From the IMG/VR virus record IMGVR_UViG_3300045994_000087: 39,287 bases of DNA; one strand, 5' to 3'. Shown here piece after piece: positions 2,251-39,287 of the stretch (positions are counted from its first letter, which is position 1; each line of letters opens with the position of its first letter). Made by a program: the position numbers and the translations under genes. The stretch comes from a virus. The notes beneath the pieces were generated by a model. That model had not been told where the DNA came from, made no database searches, and saw only the letters and a list, made by a program, of their open reading frames with translations.

Positions 2251-2913
2251 CTATTTCGCTTCATTGAGCATCTCCGTGAGTGATGGCATGACGTGTAACA
2301 AGGCCAGTTTGCACATGGTTGCTATTTCACGATGCTCCTTCTGTGTGCCGTTGCCAGTCCGCAGTTGGATGTAGTGGATCCAGCTACGAACAGAGCCGGA
2401 CATGTAGAGATGCGACGGCGTCAAACCTTCAGGCAAGACAGCACGAGCAACTTCCTTGGCGATGCCTTGGTTGAGTGCGTCCTGATAGACCTTCATGGCC
2501 TGCTCAGCGAGCCAAGCCTGTTGATCATCCCACCATGCACGCAGTGCGAAATCCTGAGACTCAGTGCTATTCTGACGGTTTGTTGTGTCTTGCAGACGGG
2601 CTTCACGCAGGACAGGTTCGGCCACGACCTCAGCGTACCGCTGGCTGAACTCTTGGAAGCTGAATGAGCGGTGCCGCAGAATCTGGCGGGCAATGTCGCG
2701 GGTCGTTTTGATCTCGATGACTGCATGAGCCATTTCGAAGGGAGACCAGTGTTGGTTGCGGACCAGATAGCTGAGCAGACGAGGAGCAGTGTCGTGGTTG
2801 GCCTGATTGGCAGGGTTCGAGACCCGTGCGCAGTAGGCCACCAACTCCTCGCCCGTCTGAACACCTTCCAGCTCAATCGGCTGGGTGAATGCGATCAGAC
2901 GGACTTGGCTCAT
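2251..2913 (-). CDS. thyX: FAD-dependent thymidylate synthase ThyX
   Basis: Track ORF of 220 aa. The ThyX signature RHRxxSxxxxSxRY is present as RHRSFSFQEFSQRY. Confidence 0.9.
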   Translation of the reverse strand: MSQVRLIAFTQPIELEGVQTGEELVAYCARVSNPANQANHDTAPRLLSYLVRNQHWSPFEMAHAVIEIKTTRDIARQILRHRSFSFQEFSQRYAEVVAEPVLREARLQDTTNRQNSTESQDFALRAWWDDQQAWLAEQAMKVYQDALNQGIAKEVARAVLPEGLTPSHLYMSGSVRSWIHYIQLRTGNGTQKEHREIATMCKLALLHVMPSLTEMLNEAK

Positions 2914-26899: not shown

Positions 26900-26992
26900 C
26901 TATCATTCCCGCGCATCCGAACATCCCTACGGTCAACAGGGGCATAAGAAATGCTGCAGGGACTTACAGGAACCATGCAGGATTGAAAAGAA

Positions 26993-27025
26993 AGGCCTAG
27001 CTAGTACTTACTACTAGTTAGGCCT
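26993..27025. terminator. Hairpin at the convergence point of the two arms (bidirectional terminator candidate)
   Basis: aggcctagctagta (26993-27006), loop cttac, then tactagttaggcct (27012-27025), giving 13 of 14 bp paired. On the minus strand it is followed by TCTTTTC and on the plus strand by AGTTGTTG. Confidence 0.6.
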
Positions 27026-27065
27026 TAGTTGTTGCCCTCGGGTCATCCCTGAGGCTCAAGTTTGA

Positions 27066-27539
27066 TCAAAGTTCCACAAGAAGCTGCTCCCAAGCCCTCC
27101 CGGCACCAGTCCACAAGTCTTTGGCTGCCGAGTGAGGGTATTCTTCCACATAGACGATCCGCTGGCAGCTCGTGTTCAGCAGCAGCTTGCAACAGGTCGT
27201 GCACGGGCTGGCTGTCACGTAGGCCGTGTGGATCGCGTACATGTCTCGGCACTGCATCAAAGCATTCTGCTCGGCATGGATCGCTTGGCAGGAATCGAGG
27301 TTCGTGCCGCTTGGTGCGTTCCAACCAGAGCAGGCGTGAGGATGTCCGCCACTGAGATGGTAGGCTGTATCAACATCGTTGCAGTGAGGGAGCCCAGCCG
27401 CGACGCCGTTGTACCCTGTTGAGAGCACATGGCCACGGGCACTCAGCAAGACACACCCTACGGCACGACGGCAACAGGTCGTTCTTTGAGCAGTCAACAA
27501 GGCCAGTTGGAGGGCCCATTTGTCGCGGCTGAGTCTCAT
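27066..27539 (-). CDS. dCMP deaminase (cytidine/deoxycytidylate deaminase family)
   Basis: Track ORF 27066..27584. ATG 27539 follows the upstream stop (TAAtATG). Zinc motifs HAEQNAL and PCTTCCKLL are present. Confidence 0.85.
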   Translation of the reverse strand: MRLSRDKWALQLALLTAQRTTCCRRAVGCVLLSARGHVLSTGYNGVAAGLPHCNDVDTAYHLSGGHPHACSGWNAPSGTNLDSCQAIHAEQNALMQCRDMYAIHTAYVTASPCTTCCKLLLNTSCQRIVYVEEYPHSAAKDLWTGAGRAWEQLLVEL

Positions 27540-27540
27540 A

Positions 27541-28323
27541 TTAGTGCTCCCACCAACGAAGGTCGTCACCGACCTTGCTGTCACGCAAAGCTGCCAAGAC
27601 CCTCATCAAGTGCGCCGCATCATTCCAGAGTACCGCCTCAGTCTCAGGTTGTTCAAGCACCTCACTGGCCAAGCACAACTTGGCATCCGCCCAGTTGGTC
27701 TCGTACAGATGGCTTGAAGCTGCCGTCAAGAAGAGACGCCCAGGCTTCACGGCATCATCGAACTTCCGATGCTCGTTCAGCAGACCACAGACCAGGTGGC
27801 TGAGCATGCTGAAGTTGAAGACATCATACGGAACACCAAGCCAGACATCACTTGACCGCATGAACACATGCGTATTGAGCTTGCCACTGCGGATGCTGAA
27901 GAAGATGGCCACGGTGCACGGCACATCTTTGGTCTGCGGTGGGCACTCACGCCAGATGGTCAGGCCAGCTTGACGGCTATCTTCATCGGCCATCAGCTTC
28001 TCGATGATGTAGGGCAGTTGAGTTTTGATCTTTGGACCATACGCCCCAAAGAAGCGTTCACCGTCATCGCTGAAGTCCTTGATGCGGCTGTTGTAAGGCG
28101 AGATGGTCTCGACACGGTCGTCTCCAGACAGGATCCAGAAAGCTTCAGCCGCCATGAACTTGTAGCTCAGACTGCGGTCAGGGATGCGGAGCACTGGGCG
28201 GCGCATGTCAACCACCATGGTGCGTTGTGGCATCTCACGTGTCATCTTGCCGCGTGGCGCAACTGGATCGCCGTTGGTCAGGATGTCATTGATGGTGTCG
28301 AGCCAAGTTTTTGAGAAGTCCAT
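27541..28323 (-). CDS. ThyA-family pyrimidine C5 (hydroxy)methylase, predicted dCMP-specific
   Basis: Track ORF 27541..28329. ATG 28323 has an AAGGA 7 nt upstream. AAEAFWILSG matches the ELLWFLxG block. The catalytic Cys lies in DVPCTVAIFF. FMRSSDVWLGVPYDVFNFS aligns to E. coli ThyA QRSCDVFLGLPFNIASY and places Asp where ThyA has Asn177. Confidence 0.75.
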   Translation of the reverse strand: MDFSKTWLDTINDILTNGDPVAPRGKMTREMPQRTMVVDMRRPVLRIPDRSLSYKFMAAEAFWILSGDDRVETISPYNSRIKDFSDDGERFFGAYGPKIKTQLPYIIEKLMADEDSRQAGLTIWRECPPQTKDVPCTVAIFFSIRSGKLNTHVFMRSSDVWLGVPYDVFNFSMLSHLVCGLLNEHRKFDDAVKPGRLFLTAASSHLYETNWADAKLCLASEVLEQPETEAVLWNDAAHLMRVLAALRDSKVGDDLRWWEH

Positions 28324-28325
28324 GA

Positions 28326-28697
28326 TCAATCCTTTGTGTGAGCGCCAGCAAAGAAGCCAGCATAGTTAATGATGTCCAGCGCCGTGTCACGTAGCCCTTC
28401 GAAGTTTGCGTCTTGGCCACGCATCTCTTTGAGGACCAGTGAGTTAAAGCGCTGTGACTTCGTATGGAGCATCTGAGCATAGCTCACAGCCCCAAATGGG
28501 AAGTACGACGAGCGGTCGATCTTGTGTGGGTCCATGTCCGCAGCACCTTGGTTGTAGTCCTGGCTCTTGCGAACACAGAGCAGAGCTGCTTCGGCCAGAG
28601 CGCCTGGATGGCCACCACGAGACTGGAGTTCTTCCAGCAGTTCAACGGTCGAGCATTCTGCCAACTGAGTGGCGGTCAGCAGTGATTTGGTTTTCAT
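28326..28697 (-). CDS. DUF1599-like protein (function unknown)
   Basis: Track ORF 28326..28721. ATG 28697 has an AAGGA 7 nt upstream. KSQDYNQGA...AQMLHTKSQRFNSL...NFEGLRDTALDIINYAGF fits the K-x-x-DY...K-x-x-R...E-x-x-x-D-x-x-x-D-x-x-NY pattern I associate with DUF1599. Confidence 0.5.
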   Translation of the reverse strand: MKTKSLLTATQLAECSTVELLEELQSRGGHPGALAEAALLCVRKSQDYNQGAADMDPHKIDRSSYFPFGAVSYAQMLHTKSQRFNSLVLKEMRGQDANFEGLRDTALDIINYAGFFAGAHTKD

Positions 28698-28714
28698 ATT
28701 AGTTCCTTTACGAG

Positions 28715-29107
28715 TTACCATGACAAAATTTCCTTCAGACGAGATTCAGGACCTACCCAGCCTGCCGGCTTCTTGACATCAAACGCGCTGCCGCGTTTTG
28801 AGTCTTCAGCCTTGGCCACACGTACCTTGGCCATATTAGCAGAATGAACTGCATGCATGCCGGCGTGCCACTGAGCCGGGCTAATGCCAGCAAAGAGTGC
28901 CGTACCATAGGCTACGTAAGCCAGGTCGAGCAGAGCGTCAAAGGCCCCCACCTTGTCACCAGTAGCCAAAGCCTCTTTGAGTTCATCGAGTTCTTCTTGG
29001 AGGAACTTGACGCGAAAGTCCTGCGCGGCAGGGTCTTGCATGAGCATGTCAGTCGTGCCGTTGGGCAGGCCAAACTTCTCATGGAACTTAGTGACATTTT
29101 CAATCAT
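28715..29107 (-). CDS. All-alpha NTP pyrophosphohydrolase (MazG/HisE-like)
   Basis: Track ORF of 130 aa. KFHEKFGLP...RVKFLQEELDELKEA...AFDALLDLAYVAYGTA...VHSANMAKV is typical of phage MazG-like enzymes, with EExxE and D-x-x-x-D acidic helices. The start overlaps the methyltransferase stop as TGATG. Confidence 0.7.
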   Translation of the reverse strand: MIENVTKFHEKFGLPNGTTDMLMQDPAAQDFRVKFLQEELDELKEALATGDKVGAFDALLDLAYVAYGTALFAGISPAQWHAGMHAVHSANMAKVRVAKAEDSKRGSAFDVKKPAGWVGPESRLKEILSW

Positions 29108-29940
29108 CAGAACGGCGCTCCTTTCGTGGCTTTGCGGACAACAGGCTTGGCAGGTTTGCCATCAGCTGCTTTACGGCACACCCACAGGTTGTTGCGGGCA
29201 TGGTCAGGGTAGAGACTGCCAAAGATGTTGCTGATGGCGTCACTGTCGAAGTACTGTTCAAGGCCTTGGCGCACCAACTTGATGGCGTCCAGCATCTTCT
29301 TGCCGTCCATGCCAGGGATCTGAGGCTCAACCTTGCCAATGTGCTTGATGTCCATGAAGGTACCGAAGCGACGCTCAATGATATAGCCAGCCTTCTCAAT
29401 GGATGCCTGCAGCTCAGGCACGGTGTATTCGTGGATGTGGTTCTTGGCATGACGCTTGCCGTCATAGACAGGAGTCGAGAGCAACAAAACACCACCCGGC
29501 TTGGTGGCAGCAAACATGGCTTTGAGCAGATTGGTGCCATGCTCAAACTTCATGTGTTCAATGACCTCGTAATTGACGACGACGTCGAAGCCCTCGGGAC
29601 GTGCCTTCAGAAGTTCCTTGTAGCGCTCAACAAAGTTGAACTCGCCATGAAATGTCAGGCGTTGGGAAGCGGACGGCTTCAGCTTGTTCAGATCGACACC
29701 AGTGTAGTGGTTGACGTGAGCAGCTGCGCCGCCAGTCAGGATCTTGCAGAGCGGTTTGTCTTCGCCGCAACCGACTTCAAGAACGTTGTGCTTGGCCGTG
29801 ATGAAGCGACGAGCAAAGCTCCAGCGCCAGAAGTGGGCTGAGTAGTCACGGTGAAGCGTGCGGCCATGGCCAGCCTCATGCAGTTGTGTGGTGTCGTACT
29901 CGCGGTTGTCGCGGGTAATCTCTTTAGTGGACTTGGTCAT
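29107..29940 (-). CDS. Class I SAM-dependent methyltransferase with a short Lys/Pro/Ala-rich C-terminal tail
   Basis: Track ORF 29107..30069. ATG 29940 has an AAGGAA RBS and avoids overlap with the upstream gene. Motif I is VLEVGCGEDKP, the post-I acidic residue is in YTGVDL, and there is a Methyltransf_11/23-like block DVVVNYEVIEHM...KPGGVLLLSTP. Confidence 0.7.
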   Translation of the reverse strand: MTKSTKEITRDNREYDTTQLHEAGHGRTLHRDYSAHFWRWSFARRFITAKHNVLEVGCGEDKPLCKILTGGAAAHVNHYTGVDLNKLKPSASQRLTFHGEFNFVERYKELLKARPEGFDVVVNYEVIEHMKFEHGTNLLKAMFAATKPGGVLLLSTPVYDGKRHAKNHIHEYTVPELQASIEKAGYIIERRFGTFMDIKHIGKVEPQIPGMDGKKMLDAIKLVRQGLEQYFDSDAISNIFGSLYPDHARNNLWVCRKAADGKPAKPVVRKATKGAPF

Positions 29941-30005: not shown

Positions 30006-30665
30006 CTACTTGGCCACCTTGGCTTCTGGCGGATTGGCACCAGACTTCTTCAGGTGGTTGCGGTACCATTTGACGTAGCCGCGCTTCTTCTCATCCAGAC
30101 CGAACTCGGCTTGGACCTTCTCGAAGATTTGGTCGTCCGTCAATTTGCCCGACATAATCAGATCTTGGAACATCTGAGCTGCCGACATCTTCTTTTCGCC
30201 AGTCTTAGCAGGTTTATCTGCCGGCTTGGCTTTCGCCACTGGGTCGATGGCACGACGTCCTGCGTGGACTTCGGTGGGTTTTGCTGCCGCCTTCTTTGCG
30301 ACAGGCTTCACTGCTTTGACGGCAGCCGGCTTTTCAGCCACGGTTTGCTTCTTGATAGTAGCCATTTCAAGCTCCTGTTTGCTAACGTTGATGATTTGGC
30401 CAAGGTAGTCCATGGCCTCCTTTGTTGCCCCGAGGGTCTGGCTGTAGTTCACAAAGAGCTGACATGCCTTCTCCACCGGGTACCCTTCCATCGGAGTGAA
30501 CCGCTGGTCGAATGACTCCGCTGATGTTGCATGGACATCAAGGCCCATGATAATGTCCAGCGGGATAAACTTAACGAGGTCTACACTACGCTCTACTTGG
30601 ATGCAGGTACGCCTGTTGCGGTCGTAGCATGCCATGATAGCCGGTGCTTGTTTTTTAGTTGCCAT
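30006..30665 (-). CDS. Hypothetical protein (219 aa) with a K/A/P-rich linker and a C-terminal domain paralogous to 31097..31528
   Basis: Track ORF 30006..30707. ATG 30665 has a GGAGAG RBS. The shared block is AGRRAIDPV...SGK...F-LD--KK-Y--WYR---K--G. Confidence 0.65.
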   Translation of the reverse strand: MATKKQAPAIMACYDRNRRTCIQVERSVDLVKFIPLDIIMGLDVHATSAESFDQRFTPMEGYPVEKACQLFVNYSQTLGATKEAMDYLGQIINVSKQELEMATIKKQTVAEKPAAVKAVKPVAKKAAAKPTEVHAGRRAIDPVAKAKPADKPAKTGEKKMSAAQMFQDLIMSGKLTDDQIFEKVQAEFGLDEKKRGYVKWYRNHLKKSGANPPEAKVAK

Positions 30666-30897
30666 TTTTCTCTCCAGATAGTTTGTCAGCAATGACGGAC
30701 AGTTCAAGAAGGCCTTGCATCAAGACCTTGGCTTCAGGCCAGTACTGTGGTCCGTAGACCTGCCAGTGAATATGCACTATGCCACTCTTCTTGCTCACAA
30801 GAGCACGCCTGCCGCCGTCAATATACAGCTGGAAGCGAATCTCATCGTACGCGCTTTCGTCAACAATCTCGATGGTGTCTGGGTTGCTGAAGGTCAT
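30655..30897 (-). CDS. Hypothetical protein (80 aa)
   Basis: Track ORF 30655..30903. ATG 30897 forms an ATGA overlap with the upstream stop and has a GGAGAA 5 nt upstream. Confidence 0.55.
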   Translation of the reverse strand: MTFSNPDTIEIVDESAYDEIRFQLYIDGGRRALVSKKSGIVHIHWQVYGPQYWPEAKVLMQGLLELSVIADKLSGEKNGN

Positions 30898-31096: not shown

Positions 31097-31528
31097 TCAG
31101 GCTTCTTTGGGGAGCAGACCAGTGCGCTTCATTTCGCAGCGATACCACGTTGGGTAGTGCTTCTTAGAATCATCAAGGTTGAACTGCTGTTTGAGAGTTT
31201 CCCAGACCTCTTGGTTGGTCTTGCCAGACAGGATCAGTTCACGCGCTGTTGCAGAGATACCAAGTTTCTTTGGCTTGGCTTCAACAACTGGGTCGATAGC
31301 ACGACGACCAGCCTTCACAACTTTTGGCTCTTTGGCTGCAACAGGCTTGGCTTCAGCCTTAGGTGCAGGGGTTTTCAACGACTCGAGGTGGGCAGCTGCA
31401 GCACCAAGGTTGCACTCGAACTTGTCGCCCACCTTTGTGATAAACAGGTTGTAGTCACGAGCTTGAAGGCCGAGCTTACGCAAGGCGGAAGTGGCAGAGT
31501 CACGGGCGGTGTAGGTCTTGGTTGTCAT
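31097..31528 (-). CDS. Hypothetical protein (143 aa) with a K/A/P-rich linker and a C-terminal domain paralogous to 30006..30665
   Basis: Track ORF 31097..31567. ATG 31528 has a GAGGA 8 nt upstream and fits the promoter at 31586-31614. The sequence includes AGRRAIDPVVEAKPKK...LILSGKTNQEVWETLKQQFNLDDSKKHYPTWYRCEMKRTG. Confidence 0.65.
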   Translation of the reverse strand: MTTKTYTARDSATSALRKLGLQARDYNLFITKVGDKFECNLGAAAAHLESLKTPAPKAEAKPVAAKEPKVVKAGRRAIDPVVEAKPKKLGISATARELILSGKTNQEVWETLKQQFNLDDSKKHYPTWYRCEMKRTGLLPKEA

Positions 31529-31536
31529 GATGTGGT

Positions 31537-31637
31537 CCTCAGCAAGGTTTGTTCGAACAAGCACCATTGCGTTGTTCGTGATTAGATTTTAGTGTATCAC
31601 GATGGGTTTGTAAACACCTATTTTCAACTTATTGCAA
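31537..31637 (-). promoter_or_regulatory. Promoter-leader-RBS cassette, copy B (homologous to 546..643)
   Basis: See copy A. The 32-bp perfect core is at 31606..31637. Here too the upstream gene's stop codon lies 1-2 nt beyond the core. Confidence 0.8.
31586..31614 (-). promoter_or_regulatory. Sigma70-like promoter
   Basis: Minus strand reads TTTACA (31614-31609), a 17-nt spacer, then TAAAAT (31591-31586). Confidence 0.6.
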
Positions 31638-34205: not shown

Positions 34206-34931
34206 TTAGTACTTACAAGGGCCGTTTTTGCTGGCACTGAAGAAGCACCAACGGCATTTGTCATTTGGACGCGGCGCAAAGGTCGTGTCGTTCATCATTG
34301 CCTTGGTGCGCTTGGCCCAGACCTTCTTGAGGCGGTCGATGTCCTTCGGTGTGAAGATCAGCGGCTTGTCAGCATCAGGGTAGACAGTGCCTTGATCAAG
34401 GTAGGCCAGACGAGGACGAACTTCCTTGAGGTGCGGGTGCAACAGGAGAGCCGCCAGTGCGTAGAGCTCGAGCTGTTCAACGTAGTCCTCATTCATTTCG
34501 GCGCGGAACTTCCCTGTCTTCCAGTCAGTCACAATGAGAATGTCGTCGCCTTCATGGTGCGCGCAATCCAGCTTAATGCGAACCCAGCAGTGAATCCAGT
34601 TATCCCACTCTGTCTCAGCCCAGTCCTTGGTGAATGACCAGTTGTCTTCGACCACCATGCCATTGATGGACTTCTTGAACTGCTTACGCAACGCCTTGAG
34701 TTCATCACCAAACAACTTCAGCTCCATCGGCAATGTGCGTCCCTTGCCCTTGATGTAGTCCTCAACCAGCGTGTGGATCGCAGCACCACGAGCCATGGCT
34801 GGGTTTGGCGGTTCTTTGATCTTGTCGATGTGCTTCAGCTTGAACTTCAGTGGGCATTGCTTGTAATCGCTGTACCGGCTGAATGACCAACTGGTGGCCC
34901 GCTCGATTGGAATAATTTTCTTGGTGGCCAT
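34206..34931 (-). CDS. PD-(D/E)XK exonuclease, Cas4/RecB-like, with a Cys cluster
   Basis: Track ORF of 241 aa. Features are YSDYKQCPLKFKL, ILIVTDWKTGK, EQLELYALA and a C-terminal CRWCFFSASKNGPC. This gives one N-terminal Cys plus three C-terminal Cys, as in Fe-S Cas4-like nucleases. Confidence 0.75.
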   Translation of the reverse strand: MATKKIIPIERATSWSFSRYSDYKQCPLKFKLKHIDKIKEPPNPAMARGAAIHTLVEDYIKGKGRTLPMELKLFGDELKALRKQFKKSINGMVVEDNWSFTKDWAETEWDNWIHCWVRIKLDCAHHEGDDILIVTDWKTGKFRAEMNEDYVEQLELYALAALLLHPHLKEVRPRLAYLDQGTVYPDADKPLIFTPKDIDRLKKVWAKRTKAMMNDTTFAPRPNDKCRWCFFSASKNGPCKY

Positions 34932-36847
34932 TAGAGCACCTTGCCTTTCTTGTCGTAGTCCTGGAGTTCATCCCAGTTGGTTGAGGAGATTGCTCCCTCG
35001 CTTAGTATGGAGACGTCGAACTCAACCGACTCCATTGTTTGACGCAGCACTTCCATTTCAGGCTTCAGGATCTTCTTTGGTACGCTGACCGTGACCTGGT
35101 CATGGACGTTGAGGACAATTCGTGCTGACGGGTGCTTGGCTGCATGATACCTGATCAAGGCCTCTTTGGTGCAGTCAGCAGCAGAACCTTGAATGAGCAC
35201 GTTGACCAGCTTGTAATCGAACTCACGGACACGGCCATCAATGAGCTTTGGCTCTTCACAGTAATACTCACGACCACCCCATGTGCGAATTGGCTCCTTA
35301 TTCTTGGCCCGCAACTTCATGTCTTGGTACATCTGCTTGAGCCCAGGGTACAGCTGCAAAATTGCCTTCTTCAACTCACTGGACTCTTCAACAGTCATGT
35401 CGTTGCGCTCAGCCAGTTTACCGACACCCATGCCGTAGATCAGACCAAGGTTGGTGTTCTTCACAGGTTTACGCTCGTAGAACTTTCCCATCTTGGCGAG
35501 CTCTGCCTTGGCGTAGTCGTGGAAGTCGATCCATGGATTTTCGACGTACTTGTCCATCAGGGCGCCACCGTCGAAGTGGGCCAAGATGCGAGGTTCTTGC
35601 TGCGAATAATCTCGATCGATGAAGACCTCACCTTTGAATGGCGTGATGTAGCTGCGCACTTTAGGCAGGGCGGGCAACACTTCTTTGAACGGAGACTTGG
35701 GCAACTTCTTGGCTGGATCCTCGTGGTGGAAGATGGCCGCGAACTCTTTGGGGATGTTTTGGAAGTTCGGCGTGCTAGACAGTCGGCCAGTTCGCGTTCC
35801 AACATTGTGGTCACCAGACGGAGACTTGATTTGGTTCCAGGTTGTGAAGATCAGACCACCAGACGCGTTGGCCGTTGCAAGCCATGGCTGCATGAAGGTG
35901 TTCAAACAGGTGTTGAGCTGTGTCCTGTACTTAAGGACAGCCAGCAGAACCTTGTCAGTCACTCCTTGCAGCAGAGCTTCCTTGTTCGTTTGGAACTTGC
36001 CTGTCGGTGTCTTGGGCAGCAGATCAGGATCGGCTTTGCCAGCATCAACCATGGCAGCCACAAGTTGGGCACCTGAATCGAGGTTGATGTCTGCGTCTGC
36101 CTTGAGGGTCTTGATGATCCATGCATCGATCTTGATACGCCACTCGTTGTACATGACCACATCATCAGCTAAGCGCTTGTGGTCCATCTGAAGACCTTGG
36201 CGCTCCATCTCAAGCAGGATGGGCATGAGTTTGCGCTCACGGTCGTAGGAGACCAGCATGTCGCGGCCAACAGTCTTCTTCCATAGCAAGTTAAAAATGG
36301 ACTCAGTGCGCTCGACGTCACCGTTGGCGTACTTGCCGACAAGGTCACCAGGTGCATAGGCGATGTACCGACCGAAGTAGTGCTCAGACGACTTGCTCTT
36401 GCTGATCTTGACGCCTTTGACCGGCTGATTGGCAATGAGCCATTCACCGACAGCATCTTGCTCATCAGCAGGAAGGCCAAGCAGCCGAGTGGCTGATGGC
36501 TTCAGGCCAAGCTCCATCTGGTGCGGATCATCGAGGAATAGCAGGAACATGGTGTCATGGATCTTGTCCCATGCAGGGATAGGCAGACCAAAGTGCTCTT
36601 CAGCCACATCGACGTCGAACTTGCCATTCTGAAAGAGGACGCCTTCCTTGTGTGCCCATGCCTTCTTCAGCTCAGCAGCTCCGTCTGACCAGCAGCAGTT
36701 GTTGCCAGTAGGGTGTCCCCAAGCGTAGTACTTTGACTTCTTGCCAGGGTACTTGATGGACACACCGACAGGCATTGGAGGGTACTTTGGTCTGCCCTCG
36801 ATGCCGAAGGTTTCAAAGTCCACAGTGACCGGGTTTGGTTGCTTCAT
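34931..36847 (-). CDS. Family A DNA polymerase with a 3'-5' exonuclease domain
   Basis: Track ORF of 638 aa. Exo I is VTVDFETFG and Exo II is NGKFDVDV. Motif A is DRDYSQQEPRILAH, motif B is RKPVKNTNLGLIYGMG and motif C is LNVHDQV. Confidence 0.9.
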   Translation of the reverse strand: MKQPNPVTVDFETFGIEGRPKYPPMPVGVSIKYPGKKSKYYAWGHPTGNNCCWSDGAAELKKAWAHKEGVLFQNGKFDVDVAEEHFGLPIPAWDKIHDTMFLLFLDDPHQMELGLKPSATRLLGLPADEQDAVGEWLIANQPVKGVKISKSKSSEHYFGRYIAYAPGDLVGKYANGDVERTESIFNLLWKKTVGRDMLVSYDRERKLMPILLEMERQGLQMDHKRLADDVVMYNEWRIKIDAWIIKTLKADADINLDSGAQLVAAMVDAGKADPDLLPKTPTGKFQTNKEALLQGVTDKVLLAVLKYRTQLNTCLNTFMQPWLATANASGGLIFTTWNQIKSPSGDHNVGTRTGRLSSTPNFQNIPKEFAAIFHHEDPAKKLPKSPFKEVLPALPKVRSYITPFKGEVFIDRDYSQQEPRILAHFDGGALMDKYVENPWIDFHDYAKAELAKMGKFYERKPVKNTNLGLIYGMGVGKLAERNDMTVEESSELKKAILQLYPGLKQMYQDMKLRAKNKEPIRTWGGREYYCEEPKLIDGRVREFDYKLVNVLIQGSAADCTKEALIRYHAAKHPSARIVLNVHDQVTVSVPKKILKPEMEVLRQTMESVEFDVSILSEGAISSTNWDELQDYDKKGKVL

Positions 36848-38758: not shown

Positions 38759-39287
38759 TCACCGCAGGATGGCACCGCTCAGGTTGGCATCGCGCAGGAT
38801 GGTATCGTACAGGTTGGCACCGCTCAGGTTAGCACCGCTCAGGTCGGCACCGTACAGGTCGGCACCGCCCAGGTCGACACTGTGCAAGTTGGCACCGCTC
38901 AGGTTGGCATCGCGCAGGATGGTACCGCTCAGGTTGGCATCGTACAGGTTAGCACCGCTCAGGTTGGCACCGCGCAGGTCGACATAGCTCAGGTTAGCAC
39001 CGTGCAGGTCGGCAACGCTCAGGTTAGCACCGCTCAGGTTGGCATCGCGCAGGATGGTATCGTACAGGTTGGCACCGCTCAGGTTAGCACCGCTCAGGTC
39101 GGCACCGTACAGGTTAGCACCGCTCAGGTTGGCACTGTGCAAGTTGGCACCGCTCAGGTTGGCATCGCGCAGGATGGTACCGCTCAGGTTGGCATCGTAC
39201 AGGTTAGCACCGCTCAGGTTGGCACCGCGCAGGTCGACATAGCTCAGGTTAGCACCGTGCAGGTCGGCAACGCTCAGGTTAGCACCG
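38759..39287 (-). CDS. Pentapeptide-repeat protein, C-terminal part. Bases 39161-39287 duplicate 1-127, so the unique part is 38759..39160.
   Basis: Track ORF 38759..39142 ([18 protein letters not shown]... pentads). The same frame stays open up to the window end. The stop codon is at 38759-38761. Confidence 0.85.
38906..39032. repeat. Internal copy of the 127-bp terminal sequence
   Basis: Identical by eye to 1..127 and to 39161..39287. It lies exactly 255 bp upstream of 39161. Confidence 0.9.
39161..39287. repeat. Terminal overlap copy (same as 1..127)
   Basis: Exact 127-bp identity with the window start. Confidence 0.95.

Follow-up and report, generated by a model that had tools for sequence, protein, structure and literature searches.

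A predicted cytosine-replacement cassette with a putative methyltransferase tailoring step in an environmental phage genome

A Candidate Cytosine-Modification Cassette

The viral genome recorded in IMG/VR as IMGVR_UViG_3300045994_000087 (39,287 nt in the form analyzed here, termed the window) carries five almost gapless open reading frames (ORFs) on its minus strand, from position 29940 to 27066, which resemble a pathway for replacing cytosine in phage DNA. The explanation that best accommodates the evidence, and to which we give about an even chance, is a T4-type, pre-replicative replacement of cytosine by 5-hydroxymethylcytosine (5hmC) combined with a tailoring step dependent on S-adenosyl-L-methionine (SAM), possibly yielding 5-methoxymethylcytosine. 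Replacement by 5hmC is very probable in itself; the tailoring to a hitherto undescribed base is the less certain part. The initial annotation of this DNA had likewise proposed a cytosine pathway with T4 logic and an additional SAM methyltransferase, and this proposal is sustained by two active-site substitutions (N177D and L143D, in Escherichia coli numbering) in a homolog of the thymidylate synthase (TS) ThyA, by a separately encoded ThyX, and by the restriction resistance of DNA from a cultured relative, Stenotrophomonas phage AXL3.

In order of transcription, the five minus-strand genes encode a class I SAM methyltransferase (277 aa; 29107..29940, ATG at 29940 and TGA at 29107), a MazG/HisE-type pyrophosphatase (130 aa; 28715..29107, ATG at 29107 and TAA at 28715), a DUF1599-like protein (123 aa; 28326..28697, ATG at 28697 and TGA at 28326), a ThyA homolog predicted to be a deoxycytidine monophosphate (dCMP) 5-hydroxymethylase (260 aa; 27541..28323, ATG at 28323 and TAA at 27541), and an enzyme of the dCMP deaminase family (157 aa; 27066..27539, ATG at 27539 and TGA at 27066). 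When the ORFs and junctions were re-read, all five genes and four junctions were exactly as first annotated: a 1-nt overlap (TGATG, 29105-29109) between methyltransferase and pyrophosphatase, a 17-nt gap between pyrophosphatase and DUF1599-like gene, TGAtcATG (28321-28328) before the ThyA homolog, and TAAtATG (27537-27543) before the deaminase. The DUF1599-like gene has an alternative in-frame ATG at 28721 (giving 131 aa), which overlaps the pyrophosphatase stop as ATGGTAA; both candidate starts are preceded by an AAGGA-type Shine-Dalgarno sequence, and database homologs are annotated at both lengths (123 and 131-133 aa).

Spacing this tight is, taken alone, ordinary for phage genomes; the cassette is considered non-chance because its gene order is conserved, not because its genes are closely packed. 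The five genes had first been described as an operon, and while their packing stands, their status as a separate unit does not: they make up the 3'-terminal part of an extended co-directional array of replication genes running from 39142 to 27066, and consensus scans for promoters and terminators gave matches at chance level, with no promoter standing out upstream of the cassette.

The ThyA Homolog and Thymidylate Supply

The fourth gene product falls within the ThyA superfamily (PF00303, 9e-23; 81.2 bits against a cut-off of 24.3 bits), and its best match in the PDB is MilA, a CMP 5-hydroxymethylase (2e-17). We aligned it with E. coli ThyA, T4 gp42 (the sequence of which was verified against 1B49), an SPO1-type enzyme, the 5-methylcytosine (5mC) enzyme of phage PaMx74, and the homologs from related cassettes. 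The catalytic Cys136, in the motif 'TKDVPCT', aligns with C146 of E. coli and is invariant. According to a published residue rule, N177D denotes a dCMP substrate, L143D/E correlates with transfer of a hydroxymethyl rather than a methyl group, and D169N denotes a 5-hydroxy-dCMP synthase (PMC13326640). The homolog has Asp at the position of L143, Asp at that of N177 ('GVPYDVF'), and retains Asp at D169, which is the combination expected of a T4 gp42-type dCMP 5-hydroxymethylase; the residues concerned lie in 'TKDVPCT' and 'RSSDVWLGVPYD'. The rule fits the controls in the alignment: position L143 is Asp in T4 gp42 and in the SPO1-type enzyme, and Asn in the PaMx74 5mC enzyme. The TS-type C-terminus is missing, as it is in T4 gp42, and a C-terminal Y-x-P-x-P segment is common to the PaMx74 enzyme ('YNPRPEV') and E. 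coli ThyA. The same Asp/Asp/Asp signature occurs in all 73 ThyA homologs from closely related cassettes and in 67 of 69 from more distant ones. On these sequence features, the protein is likely to be a dCMP 5-hydroxymethylase. Retention of D169 in all 73 close homologs rules out a 5-hydroxy-dCMP synthase of the RB69 gp48 type.

The initial annotation had named ordinary deoxythymidine monophosphate (dTMP) synthase behavior as part of an outcome that would overturn its interpretation. The homolog does not resemble such an enzyme, having Asp at both N177 and L143 and no closing C-terminal segment, and all NCBIfam thymidylate synthase equivalogs score far below their cut-offs (e.g., 63 vs. 175 bits). 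Thymidylate synthesis is also provided for elsewhere, by the flavin-dependent ThyX (220 aa; 2251..2913, minus strand; Pfam Thy1 1.5e-39, phrog_85 1.3e-67), which makes a second dTMP synthase redundant and would allow the ThyA homolog to serve cytosine chemistry. Both ThyX and a hydroxymethylase release tetrahydrofolate (THF) and not dihydrofolate (DHF), which fits the absence of a dihydrofolate reductase (DHFR).

The last gene of the cassette encodes a protein of the deaminase family (PF00383, 1.9e-19; 69.9 bits against a 25-bit cut-off; phrog_174, 1e-36) with the zinc motifs 'IHAEQNA' and 'SPCTTCC' (HAE...PCxxC) and a Cys/His-rich insert. Its best PDB match is the T4 dCMP deaminase cd (1vq2, 7e-14); its identity with the PaMx74 deaminase is only 25%.

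Restriction Resistance of a Cultured Relative

Among cultured phages, AXL3 (Axeltriavirus) and Pseudoxanthomonas phage PW916 are the nearest relatives, with ∼72% nucleotide identity over the cassette. Both share the replication module, ThyX, and the order methyltransferase, pyrophosphatase, third gene (hereafter slot 3), ThyA homolog (Asp/Asp/Asp), and deaminase. They differ from the present phage in genome size and composition (47.5 kb and 63% GC, compared with 39.2 kb and 53% GC), and slot 3 of AXL3 encodes a dTMP-kinase-like protein of 327 aa that shows no resemblance to the DUF1599-like protein. Only two of 37 restriction enzymes cut AXL3 DNA, TasI (AATT) and Tru1I (TTAA), and all 35 enzymes with G or C in their sites were resisted (PMC7504290).

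The papers describing AXL3 and PW916 annotate the cassette as thymidylate synthesis (PMC7504290, PMC9414467), in which dCMP would be deaminated to deoxyuridine monophosphate (dUMP), ThyA would convert dUMP to dTMP, and the DNA would remain canonical. The Pfam family name, Thymidylat_synt, agrees with that annotation. Asn177, the residue that reads O4 and N3 of uracil, has however given way to Asp in each of the 73 close homologs; together with the low equivalog scores, the presence of ThyX, and the refractoriness of AXL3 DNA to 35 of 37 enzymes, this makes ordinary thymidylate supply extremely improbable, and we reject it on N177D, ThyX, and the restriction data.

The restriction pattern also bears on the identity of the base. 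DNA of phage Xp12, which contains 5mC, is fully cut by AhdI and KpnI (PMC7653180), and DNA of AXL1, a probable 5mC phage, is partly cut by Eam1105I and KpnI; AXL3 DNA, unlike that of Xp12, resists both Eam1105I/AhdI and KpnI. The 5hmC-containing DNA of T4gt is partly cut by XbaI and XmnI, and fully glucosylated T4 DNA is uncut; AXL3 DNA, unlike that of T4gt, resists XbaI and PdmI/XmnI. The comparison indicates that the AXL3 modification is not 5mC and behaves as bulkier than 5hmC.

A replacement of cytosine by 5mC, as in Xp12, would make the ThyA homolog a dCMP methyltransferase and would have the deaminase convert 5-methyl-dCTP to dTTP (the deoxycytidine and thymidine triphosphates, respectively). 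Consistent with this possibility, N177D is common to 5mC enzymes, the second and third genes are homologous to the Pamexvirus pyrophosphatase, and deaminases encoded beside ThyA-N177D enzymes are often 5mC-selective (selectivity for 5hmC also occurs; bioRxiv 10.1101/2024.12.05.627091). The ThyA homolog is nevertheless only 28% identical to that of PaMx74, has Asp in place of its Asn at L143, and lacks the TS-like C-terminus. DHFR, which all eight Pamexvirus 5mC phages encode (PMC9206674), is missing, and ThyX makes a route from 5mC to thymine needless. Since AXL3 DNA additionally withstands KpnI and AhdI, and since the SAM methyltransferase would be left unexplained, we consider 5mC replacement very unlikely. 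Among the products first suggested, 5mC is disfavored and a methylated derivative of 5hmC is favored.

Conservation of the Cassette

Neighborhoods were scored by tblastn in IMG/VR loci, 79 of them carrying a close methyltransferase homolog and 80 a distant, podovirus-type one (∼30% identical); 73 close and 69 distant loci were evaluable. The distant branch was reached by an alignment-based search, a single-protein query with a podovirus methyltransferase having returned one locus. In the close set, the gene order is identical in 73/73 loci, with the pyrophosphatase and the ThyA homolog present in every locus (all ThyA homologs Asp/Asp/Asp) and the deaminase in 67. The cassette recurs in the distant, podovirus-like branch, where the ThyA homolog is present in 69/69 loci (67 Asp/Asp/Asp) and a kinase in 59/69. 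Every one of the 142 evaluable loci thus has a ThyA homolog close to the methyltransferase, 140 of them with the Asp/Asp/Asp signature, and cassette order is kept between sipho- and podovirus-like genomes even though their methyltransferases are only 29% identical. Phages bearing the methyltransferase are represented by no fewer than 299 IMG/VR contigs and by 876 protein clusters; AXL3 and PW916 are the members in culture. In GTDB genomes, the gene occurs almost exclusively on phage-sized contigs of metagenome-assembled genomes.

In some relatives, a C5-cytosine DNA methyltransferase (PF00145) is encoded between or near the methyltransferase and the pyrophosphatase (L080, 2282-3352, with a match at 3.6e-17; L081, 5224-6570; L084, 7849-8958; L090, 8261-9370; L004, 3767-4828). 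Such an enzyme is odd where every cytosine is predicted to be C5-substituted already; the gene is absent from the window.

The Methyltransferase

The first gene product matches Pfam Methyltransf_23 (6e-14) and is conserved to an unusual degree, the best 120 of its 876 homolog clusters all being at least 71% identical. A glycine-rich motif I ('VLEVGCGED') and an acidic residue closing strand 2 ('GVD83') are invariant, as is characteristic of class I enzymes, and an AlphaFold2 (AF2) model (predicted local distance difference test score, pLDDT, 73) has the Rossmann methyltransferase fold of alternating strands and helices. A Foldseek search with this model gave 772 methyltransferase matches in the PDB at E ≤ 1e-3; the neighbors include the small-molecule methyltransferases BioC, RebM, MitM, and TleD as well as a cap N7-methyltransferase, and no DNA methyltransferases. 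As these are generic class I small-molecule enzymes at a template modeling (TM) score of about 0.45, a specific function cannot be read from the fold. The protein sequence contains neither of the DNA methyltransferase motifs sought (PCQ/ENV and (D/N/S)PP(Y/F)), nor a match to PF00145 or N6_N4. We propose that it is a small-molecule or nucleotide methyltransferase acting as the tailoring enzyme.

Searched against the PDB, the family profile has its best matches in bacterial Hen1 (1e-8), UbiG (1.2e-8), and HEN1/HENMT1, and UbiG and bacterial Hen1 also rank first among NCBIfam models, both far under their cut-offs. Invariant in the family are E125-x-x-E128-H129 after strand 4, H168 after strand 5, R163, and E171. 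The metal ligands of HEN1 are E796, E799, H800, and H860 (PMC10781085), and the ExxEH...H residues occupy equivalent secondary-structure positions, the register of the distal His having been read by eye from the hidden Markov model (HMM) alignment; the loops bearing ExxEH and H168 are the two low-confidence loops of the AF2 model. These features are suggestive of a metal-dependent O-methyltransferase. The N-terminal (RDYSAHFWRWSFARR) and C-terminal (YFD..A.S..F...P..ARNNLW) regions are unique to the family and invariant. Because the hydroxymethylase would make exactly one new hydroxyl, O-methylation to 5-methoxymethylcytosine is the simplest proposal for the activity.

Several observations weigh against this proposal and the pathway built on it. 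The identity of the predicted product rests on residue rules; the L143 rule is empirical, and the PaMx74 5mC enzyme has a polar Asn at this position instead of a bulky hydrophobic residue. The restriction data come from AXL3, which is only ∼72% identical here and has the kinase-type cassette, and partial digests may be unreported. The methyltransferase scores 31.4 bits against the 340-bit cut-off of bacter_Hen1, which rules out a Hen1 ortholog, and 33 against 103 bits for UbiG; ExxEH also occurs frequently across the broader Methyltransf_11/23 group, and the metal of Hen1 binds a 2',3'-diol, which deoxynucleotides lack. This genome encodes no deoxynucleoside monophosphate (dNMP) kinase, which leaves the phosphorylation step unexplained. 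Conserved synteny among phages may partly mirror common descent rather than functional coupling, and one 45%-identical homolog is found without cassette partners (L179, 6848-8686; from CAVSAZ010000011.1, a 635-kb contig), the exception to the phage-sized contigs noted above. The latter belongs to a small element with an integrase, a helix-turn-helix (HTH) protein, and a DUF3854/D5_N primase, adjoining seryl-tRNA synthetase, and may be a satellite-like integrated element.

The cassette-free homolog and the possibility of inherited synteny would fit a methyltransferase that is merely syntenic and performs an unrelated job, the final base being 5hmC or 5hmC decorated in another way. Possible jobs are Hen1-like 2'-O-methylation of RNA 3' ends and methylation of a host metabolite or defense signal; the RNA 3'-end 2'-O-methyltransferase Hen1 is indeed among the best relatives, and the nearest PHROGs family is labeled 'tRNA methyltransferase'. 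Yet the association with a ThyA homolog, almost always of the Asp/Asp/Asp type, holds across two ∼30%-identical methyltransferase branches and different morphotypes; Pnkp, the partner of bacterial Hen1, is absent here; and cassettes of the PaMx74 5mC type and of the carbamoyltransferase type described by MetaGPA have been reported without such a methyltransferase. Unmodified 5hmC as the final base is further disfavored by the resistance of AXL3 DNA to XbaI and XmnI, partial cutters of 5hmC DNA. We regard a syntenic bystander as somewhat unlikely.

Alternatively, the methyltransferase could serve the cytosine pathway at a site other than the hydroxymethyl oxygen, for example at N4 or N3 (the product might be N4-methyl-5-hydroxymethylcytosine), before hydroxymethylation, or by a CmoB-like transfer of a non-methyl group from a SAM analog. 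The acceptor atom is not fixed by the fold, the synteny supports this option equally, and the Foldseek and profile matches include phosphoethanolamine and coclaurine N-methyltransferases, the cap N7-methyltransferase, and CmoB. The strongest profile matches and the ExxEH...H residues point instead to metal-dependent O-methyltransferases, and the lack of the amino-methyltransferase motif (D/N/S)PP(Y/F) speaks against N-methylation. A non-oxygen acceptor is therefore unlikely, and O-methylation of the hydroxymethyl group is retained as the preferred activity.

Pyrophosphatase, DUF1599-Like Protein, and Slot 3

The second gene product is an all-alpha NTP pyrophosphohydrolase of the PRA-PH family (PF01503, 1.3e-11; 45.1 bits against a 21.3-bit cut-off; phrog_671, 3.6e-25) with 3nl9 and DR2231 as relatives in the PDB. 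Sequence identity amounts to 43% with the N-terminal domain of PaMx74 gp53 and to 40% with AXL3 gp30. By analogy, this enzyme would be a dCTPase, which would supply dCMP and deplete dCTP.

The assignment of the third gene to DUF1599 (PF07659) remained below threshold (E=0.036; 14.8 bits under a 25-bit cut-off), in contrast to the families of the other four genes (Methyltransf_23, PRA-PH, Thymidylat_synt, and dCMP_cyt_deam_1), all of which were recovered above their thresholds. Sub-threshold DUF1599 matches occur in 28 of 32 members of the gene 3 family, the best at 3.6e-4. The initial annotation had considered both this protein and the methyltransferase to be without counterpart in the classical pathway; the DUF1599-like protein does have a counterpart, in the C-terminal domain of PaMx74 gp53 (42% identity to residues 159-227, 2e-18). 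It also matches phrog_18404 (8.6e-18), a single 264-position profile that spans genes 2 and 3, over the part downstream of the gene 2 match. As gene 2 resembles the N-terminal and gene 3 the C-terminal domain of the 245-aa gp53, the comparison shows that the two-domain pyrophosphatase known from Xp12-type phages is here divided between two genes. For gene 3, AF2 gives a confident model of four helices (pLDDT 84) that has no significant fold match in the PDB (Foldseek E > 1), with HisE and MazG only among the weak matches; an hhalign comparison with the MazG-like partner, which bears on whether gene 3 might be a degenerate MazG domain, was likewise not significant (E = 0.11).

Among the 73 close loci, slot 3 is occupied by a DUF1599-like protein in 25, by a dTMP-kinase-like protein (EGxDGxGKST) in 47, by neither in one, and by both in none (slot 3 lies at 28326-28697 in the window and at 7674-8657 in L001; other loci are in the range L012-L090). 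The swap is seen between genomes whose flanking genes are ∼90% identical. The slot-3 kinases of relatives are ∼300-390 aa long and unrelated to the DUF1599-like protein; neither BLASTP nor hhalign detected any similarity, and we reject the idea that gene 3 is a fragment or relative of the kinase. PaMx74, with its fused pyrophosphatase-DUF1599 protein, is also without a P-loop dNMP kinase. This distribution suggests that the DUF1599-like protein and the slot-3 kinase are functionally interchangeable, and the alternation offers a handle on 'nucleotide modification associated domain 1', a family of obscure function.

In several relatives (L017, L036, L046, L069, and L078), the kinase combines a P-loop domain with a conserved extension of ∼120 aa that has no Pfam match and follows the pattern 'SAGN...vvlvG..FAE.K..D..YQWPFASFS..GCS.WL'. 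An identity resembling uracil-DNA glycosylase (UDG) was considered for this extension and dropped, as Pfam gave no support.

Proposed Pathway

In the pathway that we propose, the MazG/HisE-type pyrophosphatase and its split-off DUF1599-like partner would convert dCTP to dCMP, clearing the canonical nucleotide, as suggested by family membership and by analogy with T4 gp56. The ThyA homolog is predicted, from its three active-site residues and missing TS C-terminus, to convert dCMP and methylene-THF to 5-hydroxymethyl-dCMP, while the deaminase would divert part of the dCMP to dUMP, from which ThyX would form dTMP. The modified monophosphate would then be raised to the triphosphate, in relatives by the dTMP-kinase-like slot-3 enzyme and here by host kinases or another activity, and the Family A DNA polymerase (PolA; 638 aa; 34931..36847, minus strand; Pfam DNA_pol_A 3e-52), which would have to accept modified dCTP, would incorporate it in place of cytosine. 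Finally, the Hen1/UbiG-like methyltransferase, probably a metal-dependent O-methyltransferase, would methylate hydroxymethylcytosine either as a nucleotide or on DNA. This is the weakest step; its simplest product would be 5-methoxymethylcytosine, and the outcome would be restriction-resistant DNA.

The observations can be drawn together into a bolder, tentative statement, which we consider possible though well short of even odds: that widespread environmental phages replace cytosine by an undescribed base (most simply 5-methoxymethylcytosine) by means of Hen1/UbiG-like, metal-dependent O-methyltransferases that form a new family and use 5-hydroxymethyl-dC nucleotides as substrates, and that the DUF1599-like protein supplies or bypasses the kinase step, which would also explain the phosphorylation of 5-methyl-dCMP in Xp12-type phages.

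Hypermodifications of phage DNA defeat restriction and some CRISPR defenses, and have yielded tools such as T4 β-glucosyltransferase (BGT), 5hmC chemistry, and 5mC-selective deaminases. If the methyltransferase does cap 5hmC, its product would be a further natural DNA base, new to science, and the enzyme itself a novel O-methyltransferase of nucleotides or DNA that might be used for derivatizing 5hmC. The cassette is common in metaviromes, and it is present in phages considered for Stenotrophomonas therapy, where it is annotated as ordinary thymidylate synthesis.

Genomic Context

The ends of the window match exactly over 127 nt (1-127 and 39161-39287), and the window is a circularly closed contig representing a complete genome of 39,160 bp with 53% GC. 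The overlapping stretch falls within a gene built of tandem repeats, the copy number of which may be collapsed. This gene is an ORF of ∼313 aa (320 codons between stops) on the minus strand, which crosses the circular junction (38762-39287 into 1-∼540) and consists almost entirely of pentapeptide repeats of the A[DN]L[SYH]G type, similar to Qnr/MfpA (phrog_7713, 2e-42); the product could be a DNA mimic or an anti-defense protein.

The initial annotation had seen neither a dNMP kinase nor a glycosyltransferase. The first absence extends to the whole genome: a Walker-A regular expression and tblastn with 46 kinase queries found no P-loop dNMP kinase in the closed 39.2-kb circle, which also lacks DHFR and C5 DNA methyltransferase genes. 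The second agrees with the lack of any glycosyltransferase match among 15 replication-module proteins screened with Pfam and 15 with PHROGs, a screen to which the plus-strand structural genes did not belong.

In addition to the cassette and PolA, the minus strand encodes a ligase, ThyX, a DUF3854/DUF5906 primase, an SNF2 helicase, an Rv2179c-like exonuclease, and a PD-(D/E)XK nuclease, and the plus strand carries the morphogenesis and lysis genes. The minus-strand array is closed by a terminator-like hairpin with a U-tract (UUUCUUUUC; 26983..27026, hairpin 26992-27026, minus strand), which faces the convergent lysis genes. RNA folding gave a stem of 14 bp with one internal mismatch and an energy of -26.2 kcal/mol (z = -2.9 relative to shuffled sequences); the simple consensus scan for terminators missed it. 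Upstream of the cassette, the minus-strand ORFs at 30006-30707 and 31097-31567 resemble paralogs: both contain the segment 'AGRRAIDPV..AKP' and, at the C-terminus, a helical module that ends in 'W/YYR..hKK/RsG'. Neither has a Pfam or PHROG function, and a motif similar to that of the C-terminal module occurs at the N-terminus of PaMx74_47.

Comparison With Known Systems

The hmC pathway of T4 comprises the dCTPase gp56, gp42, the deaminase cd, the thymidylate synthase td, the dNMP kinase gp1, and α- and β-glucosyltransferases. The present cassette shares with it a pyrophosphatase that would yield dCMP, a ThyA homolog carrying both N177D and L143D, a cd-like deaminase, a separate dTMP synthase, and the tailoring of a hydroxyl. 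It differs in that a MazG/HisE-type pyrophosphatase and its DUF1599-like partner take the place of a gp56-type enzyme, the thymidylate synthase is ThyX, a SAM methyltransferase stands in place of the glucosyltransferase, and the genome is a siphovirus-like one of 39 kb. The dNMP kinase and DNA glucosyltransferase of a complete T4-type system were not found here, the kinase being present in 47 of 73 close relatives.

The 5mC module of Xp12 and the Pamexviruses (PaMx74 gp50-gp53) consists of DHFR, a deaminase, a ThyA homolog, and a pyrophosphohydrolase. The order of pyrophosphatase, ThyA-N177D enzyme, and deaminase is the same, and the PaMx74 pyrophosphatase corresponds to fused homologs of genes 2 and 3; the ThyA homolog of that module, in contrast, makes 5mC, with Asn in the L143 position and a C-terminus resembling that of TS; Pamexviruses encode DHFR and lack ThyX, and their module contains no SAM methyltransferase. 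The 5-hydroxycytosine synthases of RB69 and DLP3 are flavin-binding enzymes with D169N (Lee et al., NAR 2026, PMC13326640). Like the present homolog, they are ThyA homologs with N177D (theirs with L143E) that furnish C5 of dCMP with an oxygen open to later decoration, but Asp169 is kept here throughout the close homologs. With Hen1 and UbiG/Coq3, the methyltransferase has in common the class I fold, ExxEH after strand 4, and a further His after strand 5; it differs from them in having no Pnkp partner and no RNA-binding domain, and in its context, a nucleotide-modification cassette.

A route not previously described had been suggested at first. This does not apply to the core module, since the combination of PRA-PH, ThyA-N177D, and deaminase is a previously described marker of cytosine-modified phage DNA (PMC8670742; bioRxiv 10.1101/2024.12.05.627091). 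It does apply to the variant coupled to a SAM methyltransferase, which is undescribed in the literature searched: we found there no product for this variant, no methoxymethylcytosine, no methyltransferase coupled to a dCMP hydroxymethylase, no identity for the AXL3 modification, and no alternation of kinase and DUF1599.

A close parallel is provided by MetaGPA, which linked Thymidylat_synt, PRA-PH, and dCMP deaminase domains to cytosine-modified metavirome contigs (PMC8670742). In the part of the MetaGPA table covered here, the enriched domains include DNA_ligase_OB_2, Thy1, DNA_pol_A, PDDEXK_1, SNF2_N, and DUF3854, all of which are present in this genome, and no Methyltransf domain is among the enriched rows of that part (PMC8670742). 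In the MetaGPA modules, a carbamoyltransferase decorates the hydroxyl of 5hmC to form 5-carbamoyloxymethylcytosine (PMC8670742, Yang et al., eLife 2021). The cassette described here has the same composition of PRA-PH protein, ThyA homolog, and deaminase, together with one enzyme that would derivatize the 5hmC hydroxyl, and differs in that this enzyme is a class I SAM methyltransferase instead of a carbamoyltransferase.

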